Shown in pieces: positions 1,123-28,397 of a DNA stretch of 32,000 nt (position 1 is the first letter of the stretch; each line of letters opens with the position of its first letter). The position numbers and the translations under genes were made by a program. The stretch is from Gemmata obscuriglobus (GTDB taxonomy: Bacteria > Planctomycetota > Planctomycetia > Gemmatales > Gemmataceae): assembly GCF_008065095.1 (NCBI RefSeq), contig NZ_CP042911.1, positions 1,350,001-1,382,000 of the forward strand, read 5' to 3'. The notes beneath the pieces were generated by a model. The model saw only the letters and a program-made list of their open reading frames with translations. It searched no databases and had not been told where the DNA came from.

Positions 1123-1213
1123 GCCGAACAAATAGCTCACCTGCACCGCCATCATCGGATGAGCGGCGGGGTCCGAATCACATGGCGGTGTCAGGTGCAG
1201 CGCCGGGTTCGGC
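1123..1213 (-). repeat. attC: integron attC site
   Basis: R boxes + bulged L stem; 91 bp; identical to 3573-3663. Confidence 0.85.
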
Positions 1214-1480
1214 TTCTTGCGGCGCCTCTGCCAGACCGCGCATCTGGTATCGACGAGGCCCCTCGACGGTGACCGCGGCCCCGCCTTCGCAGATGACATG
1301 CGTGCCGTAGGCCGACTCGACAACCGTCAGCGACGGCACCGCGTCCAACCCGACAGCGGTAACGACGCACTCCTCGCCGGGTCGAAGGGCGACGCTGAAG
1401 TCGCTTGGGACGACCTCCACTAACCGGTCGGCCCCGCTGTCAGCGTCGTTGCACACACACAGGCGAACGACGAGGCTCAT
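1178..1480 (-). CDS. hypothetical cassette protein (100 aa)
   Basis: ATG at 1480, 18 nt from attC R box; no own stop, ends inside attC (tail AEPGAAPDTAM); identical copy 3628-3930. Confidence 0.65.
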   Translation of the reverse strand: MSLVVRLCVCNDADSGADRLVEVVPSDFSVALRPGEECVVTAVGLDAVPSLTVVESAYGTHVICEGGAAVTVEGPRRYQMRGLAEAPQEAEPGAAPDTAM

Positions 1481-1966: not shown

Positions 1967-2056
1967 GCCGAACGAACAGCTCACCTGCACCGCCATCACC
2001 GGATGAGCGGTGCGTCCAAGTCAGCGGGCGGTGTCAGGTGCAGCGCCGGGTTCGGC
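1967..2056 (-). repeat. attC: integron attC site
   Basis: R boxes + bulged L stem; 90 bp. Confidence 0.85.
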
Positions 2057-2440
2057 GGCTTCGCGCTGGGAGTCTGGACTGAACCGACTGCCTCCCGCCC
2101 ACCACTCACGGAACTGAGGCGGTACAACGTTGGGCGGTTGACCGGAGGCGGCTCCCGGGCACGGTGCTTGGTTCTGAACCACGATGATACCCACGGCGCG
2201 AAAGGAGAGGAACTCCGTCGTGGCCCAGTTCCGGGATGACCGAAAGATGCCCGCCTGTCTGGTGACCCAGACTTGAACGCTCGGACCGCCCAACCCGTTC
2301 CACCGCAACCCACGCCCGACCGCGGGCGGTTCGTCAAACACTTGACACTCGTTGGGCTCCAGGCCCAGTGCCACCAGCACTTCGCCGACCGTTCGCCCGA
2401 CGAGCAAACCACAGTCTCGGGTCAGGAGGTGTTTCGACAT
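2021..2440 (-). CDS. hypothetical cassette protein (139 aa)
   Basis: ATG at 2440 (MSKHLLTRDCG...); reads into attC, tail AEPGAAPDTAR. Confidence 0.6.
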   Translation of the reverse strand: MSKHLLTRDCGLLVGRTVGEVLVALGLEPNECQVFDEPPAVGRGLRWNGLGGPSVQVWVTRQAGIFRSSRNWATTEFLSFRAVGIIVVQNQAPCPGAASGQPPNVVPPQFREWWAGGSRFSPDSQREAAEPGAAPDTAR

Positions 2441-2559: not shown

Positions 2560-3048
2560 TTACACGGTGAAGATTACAGCCCGGTCGTGCGCGGCCGCTT
2601 TGTTGAAGAACTCCCGCAGTGGCACGAACCAGCCCCAAGTGTACTCGAAGTCCTCGTCGCCGAGGGCGCCGTCGTACTGGTCTGGCTCGATGGCATCGTA
2701 CCGCCGCCGCAGCTCCGCTTTGTCGATGCCTGCGATGGCAGCCGCAACCTGCTTGACCTCGTTGGCGTCGGCGTGGCAGACGGTGAATCGGTCCTCGTCC
2801 ACGAGGAGATTGTCGTGGGCGAAGACGCACATGTGTAGCGGGCTGTCGCCGTACTCCAGTTTGCCGCCGGTGAGGCAGCGGTGGATGGCGTCCCACGCCT
2901 TATCCGTTTCCTGAAGCCACTCCCGATCCCACCGGGCCTCGATCTCCTCCACGAAGGCGATGATCGCGTCGTCGGTCATGTATGGCGTGTCCATCAGCCG
3001 GGACGACTCCTCAGCCGTCAACGCGAGGTGGACACCACGCACGCCCAT
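2560..3048 (-). CDS. hypothetical cassette protein (162 aa), possibly DUF1877/YfbM-like
   Basis: ATG 3048 with GGAGG 8 nt upstream; own stop; acidic protein. Family guess rests only on the motif KAWDAIHRCLTGG and is low confidence. Confidence 0.65.
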   Translation of the reverse strand: MGVRGVHLALTAEESSRLMDTPYMTDDAIIAFVEEIEARWDREWLQETDKAWDAIHRCLTGGKLEYGDSPLHMCVFAHDNLLVDEDRFTVCHADANEVKQVAAAIAGIDKAELRRRYDAIEPDQYDGALGDEDFEYTWGWFVPLREFFNKAAAHDRAVIFTV

Positions 3049-3063
3049 CCGCGAACCTCCGGT

Positions 3064-3154
3064 GCCGAACAAACAGCTCACCTGCACCGCCATCATCGGA
3101 TGAGCGATGCGTCCCGAATCAGCCGGCGGTGTCAGGTGCAGCGCCGGGTTCGGC
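3064..3154 (-). repeat. attC: integron attC site
   Basis: R boxes + bulged L stem; 91 bp. Confidence 0.85.
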
Positions 3155-3556
3155 CTGCCTTGCGCCCTCCAGCAGTGACAGCGCCTTGCGGTTGTTGTAC
3201 GCCCGCGCGGACTCGAACGCCCGCTCGGTCGGGATCGCGCCGGCTGCCAGCAGCAGGGCGGTCAGCTCGGTGGACTCGTGCCCGGCCTCGTGGTTTGCTT
3301 GCCACGCAGCGTCGCTCTCGATGTCGATGGCGTGAACCAGTGGGGTCCAACCCGCGCCCACGTCACAGTTGATATCGGCCCCGGCTGCGATCAGCCGGCG
3401 TGCGATCTCCGTTCGTTGGTGCTCGATGGCTTGGAACAGCAGAGGCCAGTGCGGTTCGTCGGCCGCGTTGACATCGGCACCCGCCGCAATAATCGCTGCG
3501 ACTGTCGCGAGGTCATCGGCCCAGATGGCTTCCGACAGCCGTTGAGCCTTCGCCAC
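3119..3556 (-). CDS. ankyrin-repeat cassette protein (145 aa)
   Basis: repeats ...AAGADVNAADEPHWPLLFQAIEH... and ...AAGADINCDVGAGWTPLVHAI...; GTG start after AGAAGGG; ends in attC (AEPGAAPDTAG). Confidence 0.8.
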   Translation of the reverse strand: MAKAQRLSEAIWADDLATVAAIIAAGADVNAADEPHWPLLFQAIEHQRTEIARRLIAAGADINCDVGAGWTPLVHAIDIESDAAWQANHEAGHESTELTALLLAAGAIPTERAFESARAYNNRKALSLLEGARQAEPGAAPDTAG

Positions 3557-3572: not shown

Positions 3573-3663
3573 GCCGAACAAATAGCTCACCTGCACCGCC
3601 ATCATCGGATGAGCGGCGGGGTCCGAATCACATGGCGGTGTCAGGTGCAGCGCCGGGTTCGGC
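3573..3663 (-). repeat. attC: integron attC site
   Basis: R boxes + bulged L stem; 91 bp; identical to 1123-1213. Confidence 0.85.
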
Positions 3664-3930
3664 TTCTTGCGGCGCCTCTGCCAGACCGCGCATCTGGTAT
3701 CGACGAGGCCCCTCGACGGTGACCGCGGCCCCGCCTTCGCAGATGACATGCGTGCCGTAGGCCGACTCGACAACCGTCAGCGACGGCACCGCGTCCAACC
3801 CGACAGCGGTAACGACGCACTCCTCGCCGGGTCGAAGGGCGACGCTGAAGTCGCTTGGGACGACCTCCACTAACCGGTCGGCCCCGCTGTCAGCGTCGTT
3901 GCACACACACAGGCGAACGACGAGGCTCAT
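3628..3930 (-). CDS. hypothetical cassette protein (100 aa), second copy of 1178-1480
   Basis: translation identical to 1178-1480. Confidence 0.65.
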   Translation of the reverse strand: MSLVVRLCVCNDADSGADRLVEVVPSDFSVALRPGEECVVTAVGLDAVPSLTVVESAYGTHVICEGGAAVTVEGPRRYQMRGLAEAPQEAEPGAAPDTAM

Positions 3931-5028: not shown

Positions 5029-5118
5029 GCCGAACAATGAGCTCACCTGCACCGCCCGTCTCGATGAGCAGTGCGTTCCGAATCAGCCGGCGGTGTCAGG
5101 TGCAGCGCCGGGTTCGGC
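5029..5118 (-). repeat. attC: integron attC site
   Basis: R boxes + bulged L stem; 90 bp; same as 18328-18417 except the R'-side spacer (aatga vs ataaa). Confidence 0.85.
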
Positions 5119-6203: not shown

Positions 6204-6662
6204 TCACTGACCTCCGCGGTTCCGGGCGACACGCGCCGCACCGCGGCTCCGCGGAGCCCGTGCCACCGGTGCGGCCGGGCGGAGCACCCCCAACCCGATG
6301 CGCCGTGTCGCGACACATCGGAGGCCACCCACCACCGCCACCCGCGGCGATGAGCCGCGCCCGCCACCTACGGGCGCCACGCGGAGCACCACCGACACGA
6401 ACCGCCGTGTCCCCACCCGCGCCCGGCCACGCCCAACCACACCTCGCGGCGGCGAGCCGCGCCAGACCCGATCGGCACCACGCGGAGCGCCACCGAACCG
6501 ACACGCCGTGTCCGCACCCGCCACCGGCCGCGCCCACCGCACCTCGCGGCGACGAGCCGCGCCACACACCCACGGGCACCACGCGGAGCCCGACCCTCGG
6601 GATTCACCTTTGCGGACCATACGTTCAGCGCCGCCGCACGCGCGATCGAGCGCCTTGGGGTT
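6204..6662 (-). repeat. ORF-less R-type cassette (3 modules)
   Basis: three ~101-nt modules; hairpins e.g. 6394-6411 and 6445-6461; 459 bp; largely identical to 19379-19785. Confidence 0.7.
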
Positions 6663-6753
6663 GCCGAACGAACAGCTCACCTGCACCGCCATCACACGAT
6701 GAGCGGTGCGTCACAATACAGCGGGCGGTGTCAGGTGCAGCGCCGGGTTCGGC
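6663..6753 (-). repeat. attC: integron attC site
   Basis: R boxes + bulged L stem; 91 bp; same as 12681-12771 and 24567-24657. Confidence 0.85.
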
Positions 6754-9398: not shown

Positions 9399-9489
9399 GC
9401 CGAACAAAGAGCTCACCTGCACCGCCCTCACCGGATGAGCGGTGCGTCCCAAGTCAGCGGGCGGTGTCAGGTGCAGCGCCGGGTTCGGC
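9399..9489 (-). repeat. attC: integron attC site
   Basis: R boxes + bulged L stem; 91 bp. Confidence 0.85.
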
Positions 9490-9738
9490 GGGTACGATCT
9501 CGGCCGCGCGGAGCACCCGGATCGCGACGACGGTGGCGTAGTACAGGGCCGAGTCGCTGATCCGCTCGACGTACCCGCACGGCTCGCAGACGATCACGAA
9601 GCTGTCAGGACGCGAGTACTGGTGACCGCGCTGCGCCGCCCGGTGAGCCATGTCCATTAGCGTCTTGACCGCTCCGCACTCGTCGCATCGGCCCAGACGC
9701 TCGACTTCCGGGGACACCCGTGTAGGAGGCTCGTCCAT
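9454..9738 (-). CDS. small CxxC...CxxC zinc-ribbon-like cassette protein (94 aa)
   Basis: ATG 9738; CDEC and CEPC pairs; ends in attC (AEPGAAPDTAR). Confidence 0.6.
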   Translation of the reverse strand: MDEPPTRVSPEVERLGRCDECGAVKTLMDMAHRAAQRGHQYSRPDSFVIVCEPCGYVERISDSALYYATVVAIRVLRAAEIVPAEPGAAPDTAR

Positions 9739-12322: not shown

Positions 12323-12680
12323 TCGCTTACCTCGGCGGTTCCGGGCCTCACGCTGAGCGCCGCGCATCCGCTGTGCGCGTGCCACCAATGCGAGCGTGCG
12401 GAGCACCACCGATCCGACGTACCGTGCCGCGGCCCACCGGAGGCCGGCACCAACCGCCACCCGCGGCGACGAGCCGCGCCAGCCCTGATCGGCACCACGC
12501 GGAGCCCCACCGACTCGCGCCACCGTGTCCCCACTCACTGCCCGCCACGCCCAACCGCACCTCGCGGCGATGAGCCGCGCCGGCCACTCGCGGGCACCAC
12601 GCGGAGCCCGACACGCACTGTTCACCTTTGCGGACCATACGTTCAGCGCCGCCGCACGCGCGATCGAGCGCCTTGGGGTT
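12323..12680 (-). repeat. ORF-less R-type cassette (2 modules)
   Basis: 358 bp; last ~60 nt identical to the tail of 6204-6662. Confidence 0.7.
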
Positions 12681-12771
12681 GCCGAACGAACAGCTCACCT
12701 GCACCGCCATCACACGATGAGCGGTGCGTCACAATACAGCGGGCGGTGTCAGGTGCAGCGCCGGGTTCGGC
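12681..12771 (-). repeat. attC: integron attC site
   Basis: R boxes + bulged L stem; 91 bp. Confidence 0.85.
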
Positions 12772-13684: not shown

Positions 13685-13775
13685 GCCGAACATAAAGCTC
13701 ACCTGCACTGCCAGGATCGAGTGAGCAACACAACGCAGATCAGATGGCGGTGTCAGGTGCAGCGCCGGGTTCGGC
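13685..13775 (-). repeat. attC: integron attC site
   Basis: R boxes + bulged L stem; 91 bp. Confidence 0.85.
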
Positions 13776-13991
13776 GCCTCGAGTGTTCCTGACGACACGC
13801 CCGGCCGCGAAGCCACTCGCCCATGCCACGCGGGTTGCGATCAGTGGTGGCATGACGGCCGACACGGCCAGCACCATCAGCGCACCCAACGGCTGCTCGG
13901 ACGCGATCGACCCGGCTACCTGCATCCCGCCGAGCGTGATGAGCGCACCCATCACCACATGCAGGATCGTGAGCGCGGCTTTCTGGGACAC
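13740..13991 (-). CDS. small two-helix membrane cassette protein (83 aa)
   Basis: GGAGG 6 nt upstream of GTG 13991; hydrophobic stretches LTILHVVMGALITLGGMQVAG and LGALMVLAVSAVMPPLIA; ends in attC. Confidence 0.55.
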   Translation of the reverse strand: MSQKAALTILHVVMGALITLGGMQVAGSIASEQPLGALMVLAVSAVMPPLIATRVAWASGFAAGRVVRNTRGAEPGAAPDTAI

Positions 13992-14005
13992 GCGCAACCT
14001 CCGCT

Positions 14006-14425: not shown

Positions 14426-14516
14426 GCCGAACAATAAGCTCACCTGCACCGCCATGATACAGTGAGCGACTCGTCCCGAATCAGGCGGCGGTGTCAGGTG
14501 CAGCGCCGGGTTCGGC
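14426..14516 (-). repeat. attC: integron attC site
   Basis: R boxes + bulged L stem; 91 bp. Confidence 0.85.
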
Positions 14517-14855
14517 CTCCGGGGTGGTGCCGATCAGGACCGTGAGCACCTGCCCGGCGACCCGCCTGAGCGCGGCCAGACCCTCGGCGTGCTGCTTCGG
14601 TGTCGGGGCAGGCCCCACCCCCCAGGGAAGCACGGACCAGCTTGGGACGGCGATCTCCTCCGCGTACCGCCGAGCGGCGACCGCCGCTGCGGCCGGGAGC
14701 CGGCCGACAGCCTCCTCGACCAGGTGGAACGCGCGGACGCGGGCCAGTTCGAGGACGACCAAGGTGCCGAGTTCCTCGGCGGATATCAAGCCCCGCTCGT
14801 GCTGGCGGAACCGGGCGCCGATGAGCCGCGCCAGTGGGTCGTCTTGCGTCGCCAC
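14481..14855 (-). CDS. hypothetical cassette protein (124 aa)
   Basis: GGAGGG 6 nt upstream of GTG 14855; ends in attC (AEPGAAPDTAA). Confidence 0.6.
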   Translation of the reverse strand: MATQDDPLARLIGARFRQHERGLISAEELGTLVVLELARVRAFHLVEEAVGRLPAAAAVAARRYAEEIAVPSWSVLPWGVGPAPTPKQHAEGLAALRRVAGQVLTVLIGTTPEAEPGAAPDTAA

Positions 14856-14871: not shown

Positions 14872-14962
14872 GCCGAACAAACAGCTCACCTGCACCGCCA
14901 TCACCGGATGAGCGATGCGTCCCGAATCAGACGGCGGTGTCAGGTGCAGCGCCGGGTTCGGC
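14872..14962 (-). repeat. attC: integron attC site
   Basis: R boxes + bulged L stem; 91 bp. Confidence 0.85.
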
Positions 14963-15211
14963 TTGCTCGGCAACCCGCGCCCTGCATTCGGCGAGCGCCC
15001 GGAGCGTGGACTCCCTGGCGAACTCGTTGAAGGACTCCACGCCCAGCCCCCAGTTCTCCAGCGCGACCAAGTTGTCAGGGCGGGTCAGTCGCTCCCAGAC
15101 AGCGTGGACCGCCGGGTTCTGCGACTCCCACGGCAGGCACATGAACTCCCGCAACAGCAGGCGGTCGAGGTCGCACCACAAGGGCAAGAGCGGATTCGCC
15201 GACCTACCCAT
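14927..15211 (-). CDS. hypothetical cassette protein (94 aa)
   Basis: ATG 15211 with GGAG upstream; ends in attC (AEPGAAPDTAV). Confidence 0.6.
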   Translation of the reverse strand: MGRSANPLLPLWCDLDRLLLREFMCLPWESQNPAVHAVWERLTRPDNLVALENWGLGVESFNEFARESTLRALAECRARVAEQAEPGAAPDTAV

Positions 15212-15991: not shown

Positions 15992-16432
15992 TTACTCGGC
16001 AGGCGGCTCCCGCCCGGCCGCGACCTCGTCGATAGTGGCGTTGACCCGCCACGCTGCGTCCAAGTCGCAAGCTCGGAGCTGCGGCGGCACATGCCCCCGG
16101 CCGCGGATCCGGGCGACGAGCGCGTCGGGCAACCGCAGCCCGTGCCGCTCGACGTAGTGCGCCAGCGTGTGCGGCCAGAGCCACTCCCCATCCCACCGCC
16201 AGGTCGCATTGTCGGTCAGCGACTCGCCGCACAGCGAACATGGGCAGTAGCTCGGCTGCGTGGACCAGCACACCGGCGTCTGCCGCAGGTACTCCAGCAG
16301 TTCCGCTCGGTCCGCCACCTGCCAGGACGCATCGAGGAGACGACCGAGGGACGGGAACACATCGTCCTGCGTGGACTCCCAGCAGAAGAAGCCGAACCAT
16401 CGGTGGGGCCAGTCCCGCCACAGGTCTGCCAC
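15992..16432 (-). CDS. hypothetical Trp/Cys-rich cassette protein (146 aa)
   Basis: GTG 16432, 18 nt from attC, after AGAGGG; own stop. Confidence 0.7.
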   Translation of the reverse strand: MADLWRDWPHRWFGFFCWESTQDDVFPSLGRLLDASWQVADRAELLEYLRQTPVCWSTQPSYCPCSLCGESLTDNATWRWDGEWLWPHTLAHYVERHGLRLPDALVARIRGRGHVPPQLRACDLDAAWRVNATIDEVAAGREPPAE

Positions 16433-18327: not shown

Positions 18328-18417
18328 GCCGAACATAAAGCTCACCTGCACCGCCCGTCTCGATGAGCAGTGCGTTCCGAATCAGCCGGCGGTGTCAGGT
18401 GCAGCGCCGGGTTCGGC
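18328..18417 (-). repeat. attC: integron attC site
   Basis: R boxes + bulged L stem; 90 bp. Confidence 0.85.
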
Positions 18418-18912
18418 GTCTTGGCCAACTGCAACCGTGAACGCCGCGTGCATCTCCTCGGCCAAGTTCACCAGCGGACGCCATTGCTCCGGCCAGTCGG
18501 ACCACCATTGGAACCGCCATCCGGAGTACAAGTCCCCGTTCACCGCTAACTCGTACAACGTGCCGTCGGCCCCGCCGTACCCGCTCAAGTCCGGGCAAAG
18601 CGGGAGGGTGAGGGCGGTGACACGCTCGAAGTACGCGGCGACTGCGGTCGACGGCAGCGGCACCACGTCGTGCCCGGTCACCAACAGCGCCGGCTCCGAC
18701 GAGACGACCCGCGGCCGGATCAGTTGCCACTCCTGGCCGCGCTGGGCACCCCACACCTGCCGCACGTCCCACACTGACGGCATCTCGAACGACGGGGAGA
18801 CAATGAGCTGCAGCCGCCGCATACCGATGCCGCGTGCGTGCGGGTCGCTGTACGCTGGTCGCGGCTGGGTGCGAACCCGCGCCCAGTCGGCCTCGTCGGC
18901 CTGCCGCAGCAT
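18382..18912 (-). CDS. hypothetical cassette protein (176 aa), intact copy of pseudogene 5083-5613
   Basis: ATG 18912 (an alternative GTG at 18939 follows GAGGG); uninterrupted frame; ends in attC (AEPGAAPDTAG). Confidence 0.65.
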   Translation of the reverse strand: MLRQADEADWARVRTQPRPAYSDPHARGIGMRRLQLIVSPSFEMPSVWDVRQVWGAQRGQEWQLIRPRVVSSEPALLVTGHDVVPLPSTAVAAYFERVTALTLPLCPDLSGYGGADGTLYELAVNGDLYSGWRFQWWSDWPEQWRPLVNLAEEMHAAFTVAVGQDAEPGAAPDTAG

Positions 18913-18957
18913 TAGCTCTCGCGCCCGGCGATTCCCCACCCGTCGTGCCCTCTGGTT

Positions 18958-21784: not shown

Positions 21785-21869
21785 GGGACCACAGCCGCCG
21801 CGCCACGGCGGCGGTGCTGCGACGCGACACCAATCACGCGGTTGGGTCCGGTGCAGTGTCGGGTTCGGC
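21785..21869 (-). repeat. degenerate (relic) attC lacking a recognisable R' half
   Basis: ggtccggtgcagtgtcgggttcggc (R''/L'' arm) and loop gcgacgcgacacc resemble the 15896/25014 attC subtype; no GCCGAAC partner. Confidence 0.5.
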
Positions 21870-22151
21870 CGGCTTGCGCCACTTGCGGACCACAGTGGCC
21901 TTACGAGCCCGCTTGGACGCCTTACGAGCGGCCTGCTTGGTAGCCAAAGTGGCGTCGGCCTCCGCCTCCGTCGGGATCGTCCGTTCGGTGACGATCGCGT
22001 GCCAGCCGCCGCAGTCCGGGAGCGTGCAACCGCACACGATCCCGACGACCGGATGGCGGGTCAGCCCCTCACGACGTCGGCGCGCGTTCGTCCGGTGCTC
22101 GCTCTTGACGAGGTCGATGATGGCGTCTCGTTTCATGAGCTTACCAGCCAT
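21834..22151 (-). CDS. hypothetical basic cassette protein (105 aa)
   Basis: ATG 22151, 21 nt from attC; ends inside the relic attC with tail AEPDTAPDPTA. Confidence 0.55.
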   Translation of the reverse strand: MAGKLMKRDAIIDLVKSEHRTNARRRREGLTRHPVVGIVCGCTLPDCGGWHAIVTERTIPTEAEADATLATKQAARKASKRARKATVVRKWRKPAEPDTAPDPTA

Positions 22152-22172: not shown

Positions 22173-22263
22173 GCCGAACATAAAGCTCACCTGCACCGCC
22201 ATGATGCAGGATGCGGTGAGTCCCGAATCAGCGGGCGGTGTCAGGTGCAGCGCCGGGTTCGGC
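22173..22263 (-). repeat. attC: integron attC site
   Basis: R boxes + bulged L stem; 91 bp. Confidence 0.85.
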
Positions 22264-22821
22264 CTCTTGTGTGTCGATGACGCCCTCGGTCGGGTGATAC
22301 GCATACCGGCCAGATTCTAGGGCTGTTGCGTACTGCTCCAACCACGCGGCAAACCCACTGGCAACCACCCGCACGGGTCCAACCTCGTGATCGAACCAAA
22401 TGATCTGCCCAACCTTCCCACCCGGTGCGGGGTCCAAATCGACACAGAAGTGATTGCCCGACCCCGCATCGGTGACCGGGAGCCACTGTGAGTTCCAGTG
22501 GACTGGCTTGATTGGCCCTTCTGGTTCGGAACCCATTTCTGCGAACCAACCCTCAGCCGCCACTTCTTGCCATCGTAACCACTCGCCTTCGATGGCCTGA
22601 ATCGTCGCTAGCGCACCGCCACCATGTGGGAACATCCACAAGCCCCAGCTCCCATCGTGGACTTTGTACGACTGCTCCATCTCCGGCGGAAGTCGAAGGC
22701 CGGTCGCGTCCTCCAAGTGGTTGATGTGACGGTTCGATGCTGCTGGTCGAATACCCGCTAGTTCTTCCGGCGCATGTTGTTGGAGCCACGCTTCGATTCT
22801 TCTCCACGCCGCCTCTACCAC
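22228..22821 (-). CDS. SMI1/KNR4 (SUKH) family cassette protein (197 aa)
   Basis: WRRIEAWLQQHAPE...LRLPPEMEQSYKVHDG...GNHFCVDLDP...GQIIWFDHE pattern typical of SMI1/KNR4; GTG 22821; ends in attC. Confidence 0.8.
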   Translation of the reverse strand: MVEAAWRRIEAWLQQHAPEELAGIRPAASNRHINHLEDATGLRLPPEMEQSYKVHDGSWGLWMFPHGGGALATIQAIEGEWLRWQEVAAEGWFAEMGSEPEGPIKPVHWNSQWLPVTDAGSGNHFCVDLDPAPGGKVGQIIWFDHEVGPVRVVASGFAAWLEQYATALESGRYAYHPTEGVIDTQEAEPGAAPDTAR

Positions 22822-22837
22822 CGCGCGCCCTCGGGTT

Positions 22838-22928
22838 GCCGAACGAACAGCTCACCTGCACCGCCATCACCGGATGAGCGATGCGTCCCAGAACAGATGG
22901 CGGTGTTAGGTGCAGCGCCGGGTTCGGC
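22838..22928 (-). repeat. attC: integron attC site
   Basis: R boxes + bulged L stem (ggtgttaggtg variant); 91 bp. Confidence 0.85.
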
Positions 22929-24208: not shown

Positions 24209-24566
24209 TCGCACGCCTCCGCGGTTCCGGGCGACACGCCCCGCGCCGCGCATCCGCGGAAGCCCGCCCACCGTCGCATCCGCGGAGCCACCACCGACAC
24301 CCCCCACCGTGTCGCGGCACACCGAGGGCCACCCACCACCGCACCTCGCGGCGATGAGCCGCGCCGACCACCCACGCGCACCACGCGGAGCACCACCCAC
24401 CCGCATCACCGTGCCGCCGCACACCGGAGGCCACGACCAACCGCACCTCGCGGCGATGAGCCGCGCCCGTCGCACTCGGGCACCACGCGGAGCCCGACCC
24501 GCGGGGTTCACCCACGCGGACCACACCGTCAGCGCTGCCGCACCCGCGATCGAGCGCCTCGGGGTT
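24209..24566 (-). repeat. ORF-less R-type cassette (2 modules)
   Basis: 358 bp; head identical to 11874-~11948. Confidence 0.7.
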
Positions 24567-24657
24567 GCCGAACGAACAGCTCACCTGCACCGCCATCACA
24601 CGATGAGCGGTGCGTCACAATACAGCGGGCGGTGTCAGGTGCAGCGCCGGGTTCGGC
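24567..24657 (-). repeat. attC: integron attC site
   Basis: R boxes + bulged L stem; 91 bp. Confidence 0.85.
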
Positions 24658-27428: not shown

Positions 27429-28397
27429 TTACAACCCGTCGAGCGGGCTCGTGACCCCGCGACCGCCTTTGTTGAGCACGTGAGTGTAAATCATGGTCGT
27501 CTCGACGCTCTCGTGCCCCAATAGCTCCTGAACGGTCCGGATGTCCGTACCCGATTCGATCAGGTGGGTCGCGAAGCTGTGCCGGAAGCTGTGGCTGGTC
27601 ACCCGCTTGTCCACCCCAGCGTCCCGCACCGCGTCCGCCAGCACCCGGTTCATCCCGGACTCGTGTAGGTGGTGCCGGCGCGCCGCCCCGGACCGCGGGT
27701 CCACCGAGAGCCGGTGCGCCGGGAACACGTACTGCCACGCCCACGCCGTCGGTGCCGCCGGGTTCTTTGCCGCGAACGCCTTCGGAACATACACCGCCCC
27801 CAGCCCGTTCGCCAGGTCCTCCTGGTGCAATTTTCGCACGTCCGCCAGGTGCCACTCCAGCAGGCCCCGGCACACCTGCGGCAGCATCGTCCGCCGGTCC
27901 TTGTCGCCCTTGCCCCCGCGGACCACGAGCTGGTTCAGGTCCCACTCCACGTCCTTCACCCGCAGCCGCAGGCACTCCAGCAGGCGCAGCCCCGAGCCGT
28001 ACTGGATCAGAGCCACCAGCCGGTGCACGCCCTCCAGTTCCGCGAGCACCGCGCGGACCTCGTCCCGCGACATCACCACCGGCAGCCGCACCCGCCGGTG
28101 CGCCCGCACAACCATCAGCTCGTTCAGCGGCCGCTCCAGAACCACCGCGTACAGAAACAGCAGCGCGCACAGGGCCTGGTTCTGGGTGGACGCGGCCACG
28201 TTGCGGGTCACCGCCAGGTCGGTCAGGAACGCGTTCACCTCGGGCTCGCCCATCCGGTCCGGGTGCTTGATCCCGTGAAACCGAATAAACCGCTCCGCCC
28301 AATCGTGGTACGCGTCCTCGGTGCGGATGCTGTAGTGCCGTACCCGGCATGCGTGCCGAACTCGGTCGAGCAATTTGGGCGGTTGGGCGTCAGACAT
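27429..28397 (-). CDS. intI: integron integrase IntI (tyrosine recombinase, 322 aa)
   Basis: Catalytic motifs [20 protein letters not shown] and [15 protein letters not shown]. IntI-specific insert [31 protein letters not shown]. Adjacent to the attC array. Confidence 0.93.

Follow-up and report, generated by a model that had tools for sequence, protein, structure and literature searches.

About one third of the credible genes carried by integron cassettes in Gemmata obscuriglobus lack a stop codon of their own and are read into the adjoining recombination site (attC), almost always in the same frame, and their products are predicted to share the C-terminal tail AEPGAAPDTA-x. This shared tail probably arises as a by-product of the compaction of cassettes, with attC serving as a back-up terminator and the resulting extensions tolerated in a frame-specific manner, and is not a designed tag. 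The window referred to below is the whole stretch of DNA that was analyzed, comprising 32,000 nt at positions 1350001-1382000 of the single-contig genome (9.0 Mb, 67% G+C).

The window holds an integron, as seen from an integrase gene together with approximately 58 near-identical attC sites, every one of which lies on the minus strand. The 30-nt word GCCGAACCCGGCGCTGCACCTGACACCGCC yielded 54 minus-strand matches when up to 3 mismatches were allowed, compared to 0 in shuffled sequence, and a looser threshold gave 58 R''-like sites. Genome-wide, 424 R''-like sites were found, 384 of them complete. The attC sites are 90-92 nt in length and consist, in order, of R'' (GCCGAAC), a 5-nt spacer, the L'' arm GCTGCACCTGACACCGCC, a variable loop, the L' arm GGCGGTGCAGGTGAGC, and R' (GTTCGGC). 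This architecture has the elements of an attC site, including inverted R''/R' boxes, an L''/L' stem, extrahelical bases, an unpaired spacer, a variable loop, and an R' box of the form GTTRRRY. The folded bottom strand of the site at 3064..3154 (i.e., the plus strand of the window) adopted the canonical attC shape: the R box pairs over 7 bp, the 5 nt of the spacer stay unpaired, and the L stem, which carries two extrahelical (bulged) bases, leads to a variable terminal loop. The integrase sequence covered positions 1-315 of the 315 positions in TIGR02249 and also matched Pfam Phage_integrase and SAM_4. Recombination of these candidate sites by the integrase is indirectly indicated by the recurrence of identical cassettes at multiple positions of the array and within other clusters. 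The features that define the system are as follows.

3064..3154, minus strand: complete 91-nt attC site (DNA fold of -27.4 kcal/mol, z = -4.1)
3119..3154, minus strand: flagged stretch, the 5' arm of attC (R'' GCCGAAC, spacer, and L''), read in frame f0 as AEPGAAPDTAG plus stop
27429..28397, minus strand: integron integrase gene (TIGR02249, 427 bits compared to a cut-off of 265)

The integrase gene and the cassette array share one direction of transcription (an "inverted" layout), whereas class 1 and Vibrio integrons have divergent layouts. Across the genome the approximately 400 attC sites fall into more than 10 clusters on both strands, the largest with 131 sites at 5.16-5.23 Mb, and most of the clusters sit far from the integrase of the window. 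The closest database proteins to the two cassette proteins that were searched (a 185-aa protein and an ankyrin-repeat protein, described below) belong to Gemmataceae.

An ORF can enter R'' in three frames, designated here f0, f1, and f2, and these have very different outcomes. In f0 the site reads GCC GAA CCC GGC GCT GCA CCT GAC ACC GCC NNN stop and ends at +33 from the start of R''; for the flagged stretch, the stop is the TGA at 3121-3119, at the start of the variable loop. An earlier note on the window had described the other two frames correctly. In f2 the site encodes RTRRCT and then stops at a TGA at +20, the A of which is the complement of the extrahelical T in the folded bottom strand, and f1 is open across most of the attC sites, adding a median of 41 codons.

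The same note had listed nine ORFs without stops of their own, ending at 1178, 2021, 3119, 5083/18382, 9454, 13740, 14481, 14927, and 22228. All of them end 33 nt past the start of R'' in f0, and each has 91-281 open codons 5' of attC. A further ORF, which ends at 21834, terminates within a degenerate attC and gains the tail AEPDTAPDPTA*, as had been reported. Coding potential was scored as a codon log-odds value (LLR) that was trained on 1383 long ORFs of the genome and computed for each ORF over the stretch preceding attC alone; an ORF with LLR >= 10 was considered credible. The ORFs in the window, and one gene used for comparison, are listed here.

3119..3556, minus strand: ankyrin-repeat cassette gene, 145 aa (LLR 38.2; Ank_2 9.5e-8; 260 homologues)
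18382..18939, minus strand: cassette gene, 185 aa, f0 tail (LLR-scored; a paralogous copy ends at 5083)
22228..22848, minus strand: frame with a complete SMI1/KNR4 (SUKH-1) domain, f0 read-in, start codon position approximate (Pfam)
14481..14855, minus strand: cassette gene, 124 aa, f0 tail (LLR 29.9)
14927..15211, minus strand: cassette gene, 94 aa, f0 tail (LLR 16.2)
13740..13997, minus strand: cassette gene, 85 aa, f0 tail (LLR 11.8)
9454..9738, minus strand: cassette gene, 94 aa, f0 tail (LLR 17.3)
1178..1480, minus strand: cassette ORF, 100 aa, f0 tail, borderline codon support (LLR 9.0)
2021..2440, minus strand: doubtful gene, ORF of 139 aa, f0 tail (LLR -6.4; no Pfam match)
21834..22151, minus strand: 105-aa ORF that terminates in a degenerate attC, tail AEPDTAPDPTA (LLR 16.5)
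15992..16432, minus strand: comparison gene, phase f0, whose own TAA lies 9 nt before R'' (codon score, homologue alignment)

The nine had been presented as credible genes, which holds for most but not for all of them. Six have host-like codon usage (LLR 11.8-41.7) and the ORF ending at 1178 is borderline (9.0), while the one ending at 2021 is unsupported (-6.4). Despite its poor codon score, the ORF ending at 22228 encodes a complete SMI1/KNR4 domain; this domain and the ankyrin repeats were the Pfam matches found among the read-in ORFs of the window, one in each of two ORFs. The ankyrin gene lacks its own stop, and its final 11 residues are encoded by attC. That credible genes avoid the other two frames was borne out, in that zero ORFs of the window with LLR >= 10 enter attC in f1 or f2. 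Two further observations concern duplicated ORFs: the 1178..1480 ORF has an identical copy at 3628-3930, and the copy that ends at 5083 has a longest ORF of 127 aa, compared to the 185 aa of 18382-18939.

The frame preference extends well beyond the window. Among 374 cassettes scored genome-wide, 189 had no ORF with LLR >= 10 and 121 had a sense ORF with its own stop; read-in ORFs were present in f0 in 58 cassettes (53 of them stopping at +33), in f2 in 3, and in f1 in 0, and in the remaining 3 cassettes the best-scoring ORF was antisense. When reduced to independent families by blastp protein clustering plus DNA clustering, the genome has 37 f0, 3 f2, and 0 f1 families, compared to 86 families with their own stop. 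The 37:3:0 distribution has a binomial p = 2e-8 against one-half. A sample of 185 cassettes from three relatives of the same genus added families absent from the G. obscuriglobus genome, with 28 in f0, 2 in f2, and 1 in f1. Pooled over the genome and the three relatives, the f0:f2:f1 ratio is 69:5:1 families; thus, the frames are not used at random, and the one-frame bias that had been noticed in nine ORFs goes far beyond chance in the larger sample. Termination of genuine cassette ORFs inside attC is upheld by the 37 families with LLR >= 10, by Pfam domains, and by families of homologues. Spurious ORFs do not account for the bias: the codon score leaves out attC, the f0 excess is stable when the LLR cut-off is varied between 10 and 50, and every frame is represented among the ends of low-scoring, non-coding cassettes. 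Inflation by duplicate cassettes was removed by the protein and DNA clustering.

Some of the cassette DNA appears to be non-coding. One DNA family has approximately 20 copies in the window (e.g., 24300-24657, 12415-12771, and 6397-6753) and makes up 123 of the 374 cassettes genome-wide; its members are 233-461 bp in length, mostly ∼335-358 bp, with no consistent frame and with negative codon scores, and the family is apparently a non-coding cassette that has been amplified. We also observed pairs of cassettes of the same length and apparently identical sequence, at R'' coordinates 333/5749, 1213/3663, 5118/18417, 9847/17893, 14096/17473, and 6203/19378. The recurrence of such cassettes in the array points to repeated duplication or re-insertion.

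The availability of stop codons does not explain the preference for f0. Within 12 codons, a stop is present in 92% of the 384 complete attC sites in f2, in 61% in f0, and in 2% in f1. The stop that f2 offers is thus more common than that of f0, and a lack of an f2 stop can be discarded as the cause. The f2 stop is TGA-C, and it is hard-wired because its A is complementary to the extrahelical T. TGA-C is a weak stop context in Escherichia coli. The f0 stop, at +33 or +36, lies in the variable loop and is unconstrained by recombination. It was found in 34 of the 37 attC sites behind read-in families, compared to 45 of the 87 behind families with their own stop (Fisher p = 1e-5). This enrichment where the stop is used indicates that termination at +33 matters; either the f0 stop is kept where it is used, or own stops are lost only where the back-up exists. 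The attC arm is not more coding-like in f0 (LLR -3.4) than in f2 (LLR -3.3), and its codon quality does not account for the bias either. We also considered an ancestral R'' of sequence GCCTAAC, with its TAA as an f0 stop; no such R'' was found in the genome, a single ACCTAAC was found in one relative, and the tails of distant homologues all begin with A-E (GAA), leaving the idea unsupported.

Genes that retain their own stop use all three phases (45, 36, and 40 cassettes for f0, f1, and f2), and these stops concentrate at -12 to -9 relative to R'' in every frame. For stops located more than 12 nt upstream of R'', the phase is uniform. In contrast, stops 1-12 nt before R'' are distributed as 45 f0, 17 f1, and 19 f2 families (p = 1e-4). 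When expressed as read-in families over near-stop families, the values are 69/45 for f0, 5/19 for f2, and 1/17 for f1. The flank that extends 6-12 nt before R'' (e.g., 3155-3163) is moderately conserved, reading ...CAGAC, ...CAGAG, or ...(C/T)AAAGGCAC, and is also seen as ...AGGCAC; an A occupies -2 in 99 of 168 families. Own stops almost never occur within the last 5 nt of this flank. The conserved flank and the avoidance of stops within it suggest that the functional attC reaches a few bases beyond R''. On the opposite side of the site, the 5-20 nt past R' (e.g., 3045-3063) contain a conserved stretch rich in A and C together with a Shine-Dalgarno-like motif, GAGGG or GGAGG. Start codons have a median position of 16-18 nt after R', and the Shine-Dalgarno-like motif was detected in 111 of 127 families; every cassette thus seems to carry its own ribosome-binding site.

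Families of homologues provide a view of how the tails vary. For the 185-aa protein, 99 relatives were found in Gemmataceae metagenomes, and about one third of the 85 that were aligned carry attC-derived tails at the same junction. These tails include AEPGAARDPAGM, AEQRAPVDGGRT, and AEPSVAPDCGGIT and track diverged attC sequences, while distant members of the family have their own stop at the same point. A metagenome homologue of 18382-18939 (P0007) has the hybrid tail AEPRRCT, which starts in f0 and ends in f2; it implies a 1-nt shift in the attC spacer, by which the terminating frames can be swapped within a site. The ankyrin protein has 260 relatives; f0 tails were seen in approximately 12 of the 115 examined, among them one from Zavarzinella, and f2-like tails (RTRRRT) in 2, with the others having their own stops 5-10 residues past the last repeat. 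The only recurring parts of the tails are A-E-P/Q, from R'', and A-P/A-D, from L'', which are the boxes constrained as DNA. No peptide motif was found that is conserved apart from the DNA element and needed in the homologues. The comparison gene at 15992-16432 ends as ...PAE-TAA-AGG-CCC|GCC, with the TAA 9 nt before R''; in a protein alignment, a 77%-identical homologue has CAA (Q) at this codon, reading ...TAEQKQAEPVAAPDP, and continues as ...EQKQAEPVAAPDP. This TAA/CAA pair is a direct interconversion of stop and sense codons in phase f0, in one family. DNA alignments of the 4 families that mix own-stop and read-in members did not reveal the causal mutation, as the sequences are too diverged.

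We interpret these data as follows. Cassettes are tightly packed, with the stop usually 9-12 nt before R'', against the short flank, and the ribosome-binding motif directly after R', and compaction would push the ends of genes up to attC. Since the attC sites are near-identical, any gene that loses its stop, or that lacked one from the outset, gains the same extension for a given phase. The f0 extension of ∼11 acidic, Pro/Ala-rich residues (AEPGAAPDTA-x), ending at a stop at the start of the loop, would be tolerated. The f2 extension, RTRRCT (lengthened to RRRTRRCT by the usual flank), is polybasic and Cys-containing and ends at the weak, hard-wired TGA-C, and the f1 extension crosses the whole site and adds tens of nonsense residues. 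Stop-less genes persist almost only in f0, where they may form a tolerated reservoir that exchanges, through single-base changes (TAA <-> CAA), with genes that stop on their own shortly before R''. This reservoir would be entered from phase f0 only and would return nonsense mutants at -12, -9, and -6; such a back-flow could explain the enrichment of f0 among the near stops (45/17/19) with no rule acting at cassette birth. The ratios of 69/45, 5/19, and 1/17 fit a graded tolerance of f0, f2, and f1. Purifying selection against polybasic f2 and long f1 endings would then generate the bias, and GC-biased mutation may drive the loss of stops. That the tailed proteins are made is presumed from the gene sequences, with the retention of the +33 stop as indirect support. 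The weakest link is the presumed reason for which f2 is disfavored; both tails are short, and rare codons occur in f0 and f2 alike, which counts against a marked difference between the two endings. The total excess of f0 is also large (69 read-in and 45 near-stop families, versus ∼20 each for f1 and f2), and the argument from a reservoir is needed to accommodate it.

The earlier note had offered two causes of its own, a phase fixed when cassettes are made and a functional tail. According to the first, attC and a short flank would be joined to genes preferentially in f0, either at the stop or by in-frame fusion. Such a bias would yield identical numbers to those just discussed, as f0 is enriched both in the read-ins and in the own stops 1-12 nt before R''; moreover, the junction falls within a few residues of the natural C-terminus in two families, and the flank variant (T/C)AA-AGG-CAC recurs in f0 in many unrelated cassettes. 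The word GCCGAAC occurs inside ordinary genes 574 times in f0, 446 times in f1, and 34 times in f2, so a process that used gene-internal R''-like words would avoid f2. A general rule of this kind is nevertheless at odds with the nearly equal use of the three phases by own-stop ORFs, the uniform phase of stops farther than 12 nt from R'', the clustering of stops not just at -12 and -9 but also at -11 and -10, and the existence of f2 read-ins and the hybrid AEPRRCT tail. The TAA/CAA switch shows that the state can change after birth, the attC arm is no more coding-like in f0 than in f2, and we know of no crossover point at R''. A preferential joining in f0 is thus unlikely in our estimation, and the more specific proposal that the one-frame rule is a fingerprint of cassette birth in this lineage, with attC and its flank always joined to the gene at or over its stop in one and the same phase, is somewhat less likely still.

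A tail that serves as a C-terminal module for stability, targeting, or interaction, and is kept by selection on the protein, would agree with the strong preference, replicated in the relatives, for one frame that yields a peptide, with the persistence of the tailed state over diverged homologues and genera, and with the retention of the f0 stop where it is used. We consider it very improbable. The tail follows the attC DNA and lacks a peptide motif, most homologues in both families are tail-less with the same end point, and nonsense codons just before the tail are common in phase f0, with the stop/sense switch documented in one family. Furthermore, the carriers are unrelated (ankyrin, SUKH, and orphan proteins) and share no common feature, and, as judged from its sequence, the tail has neither the transmembrane segment and basic cluster of PEP-CTERM nor any likeness to the ssrA tag. 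An improbable alternative, but one with slightly more in its favor, is that translation into attC is itself selected because it melts an mRNA hairpin and raises expression of the next cassette, with the peptide being irrelevant. Translation of upstream cassettes, and of the segment reaching attC, does raise downstream expression (PMC11511950; PMC8876359), and the f0 stop at +33 lies just beyond the whole 5' arm. The f2 stop at +20 would also open most of this arm, however, leaving the preference for f0 over f2 unexplained, and the RNA fold of the region was indistinguishable from that of shuffled sequences (z = -0.97). Read-in cassettes were no more likely to precede a coding cassette (OR 1.1, p = 0.86), and this lack of association leaves an expression benefit unsupported. 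The reading of the tail as a by-product of compaction is accordingly the one we favor.

Several consequences follow for integron biology and for annotation. The overlap between genes and attC can be measured here on hundreds of near-identical sites, where the recombination site doubles as a shared terminator with a loop stop that is kept where it is used. Selection or mechanism sharply separates two frames that both terminate, and genes can pass between the stop-less and own-stop states. An 11-residue tail derived from a recombination site is present on dozens of Gemmataceae "hypothetical proteins" and should be trimmed before work on structure or function, and the tail can be used as a marker of cassette-borne genes in metagenomes. 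If the bias does arise at birth, it bears on the origin of cassettes, and the Gemmataceae arrays would offer the first sequence-level handle on the mechanism of their genesis.

The overlap of stop codons with attC is already known, as most resistance cassettes have a stop codon that is overlapped by the site (PMC11511950). In the searchable literature, neither a one-frame rule, nor a preference between terminating frames, nor a tail encoded by attC and shared among proteins was found to be described, and no paper dealt with a Gemmata integron. As in the cassettes of mobile class 1 integrons, the genes studied here abut or overlap the site with no 3' untranslated stretch. Compactness in those cassettes has been tied to expression of the array, since untranslated 3' stretches reduce downstream expression (PMC11511950). 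The present system differs in that R'' (GCCGAAC) is free of stops, which extends the overlap to 33 nt and adds 11 residues, and in that the near-identical attC sites give dozens of unrelated proteins one tail.

The arrangement also resembles the sedentary chromosomal integrons of Vibrio (VCR) and Xanthomonas, where an integrase lies by a long, co-oriented array with species-specific attC sites and many orphan or gene-less cassettes. It departs from them in having intI oriented in the same direction as the array, ∼400 attC sites in more than 10 clusters, a 67% G+C genome, and one non-coding family that accounts for a third of the cassettes. A parallel can further be drawn with back-up (tandem) stops, in which a second in-frame stop limits the damage from stop loss or read-through and is retained more where it is needed; in this case, the back-up is supplied by a mobile recombination site, is common to all cassettes, and is the sole stop for many genes. 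[quoted passage not shown] Those ORFs encode small leader peptides that aid translation of the first cassette, whereas in the Gemmata arrays no coupling to the next cassette was detected and it is full-length proteins that are extended at their C-termini.
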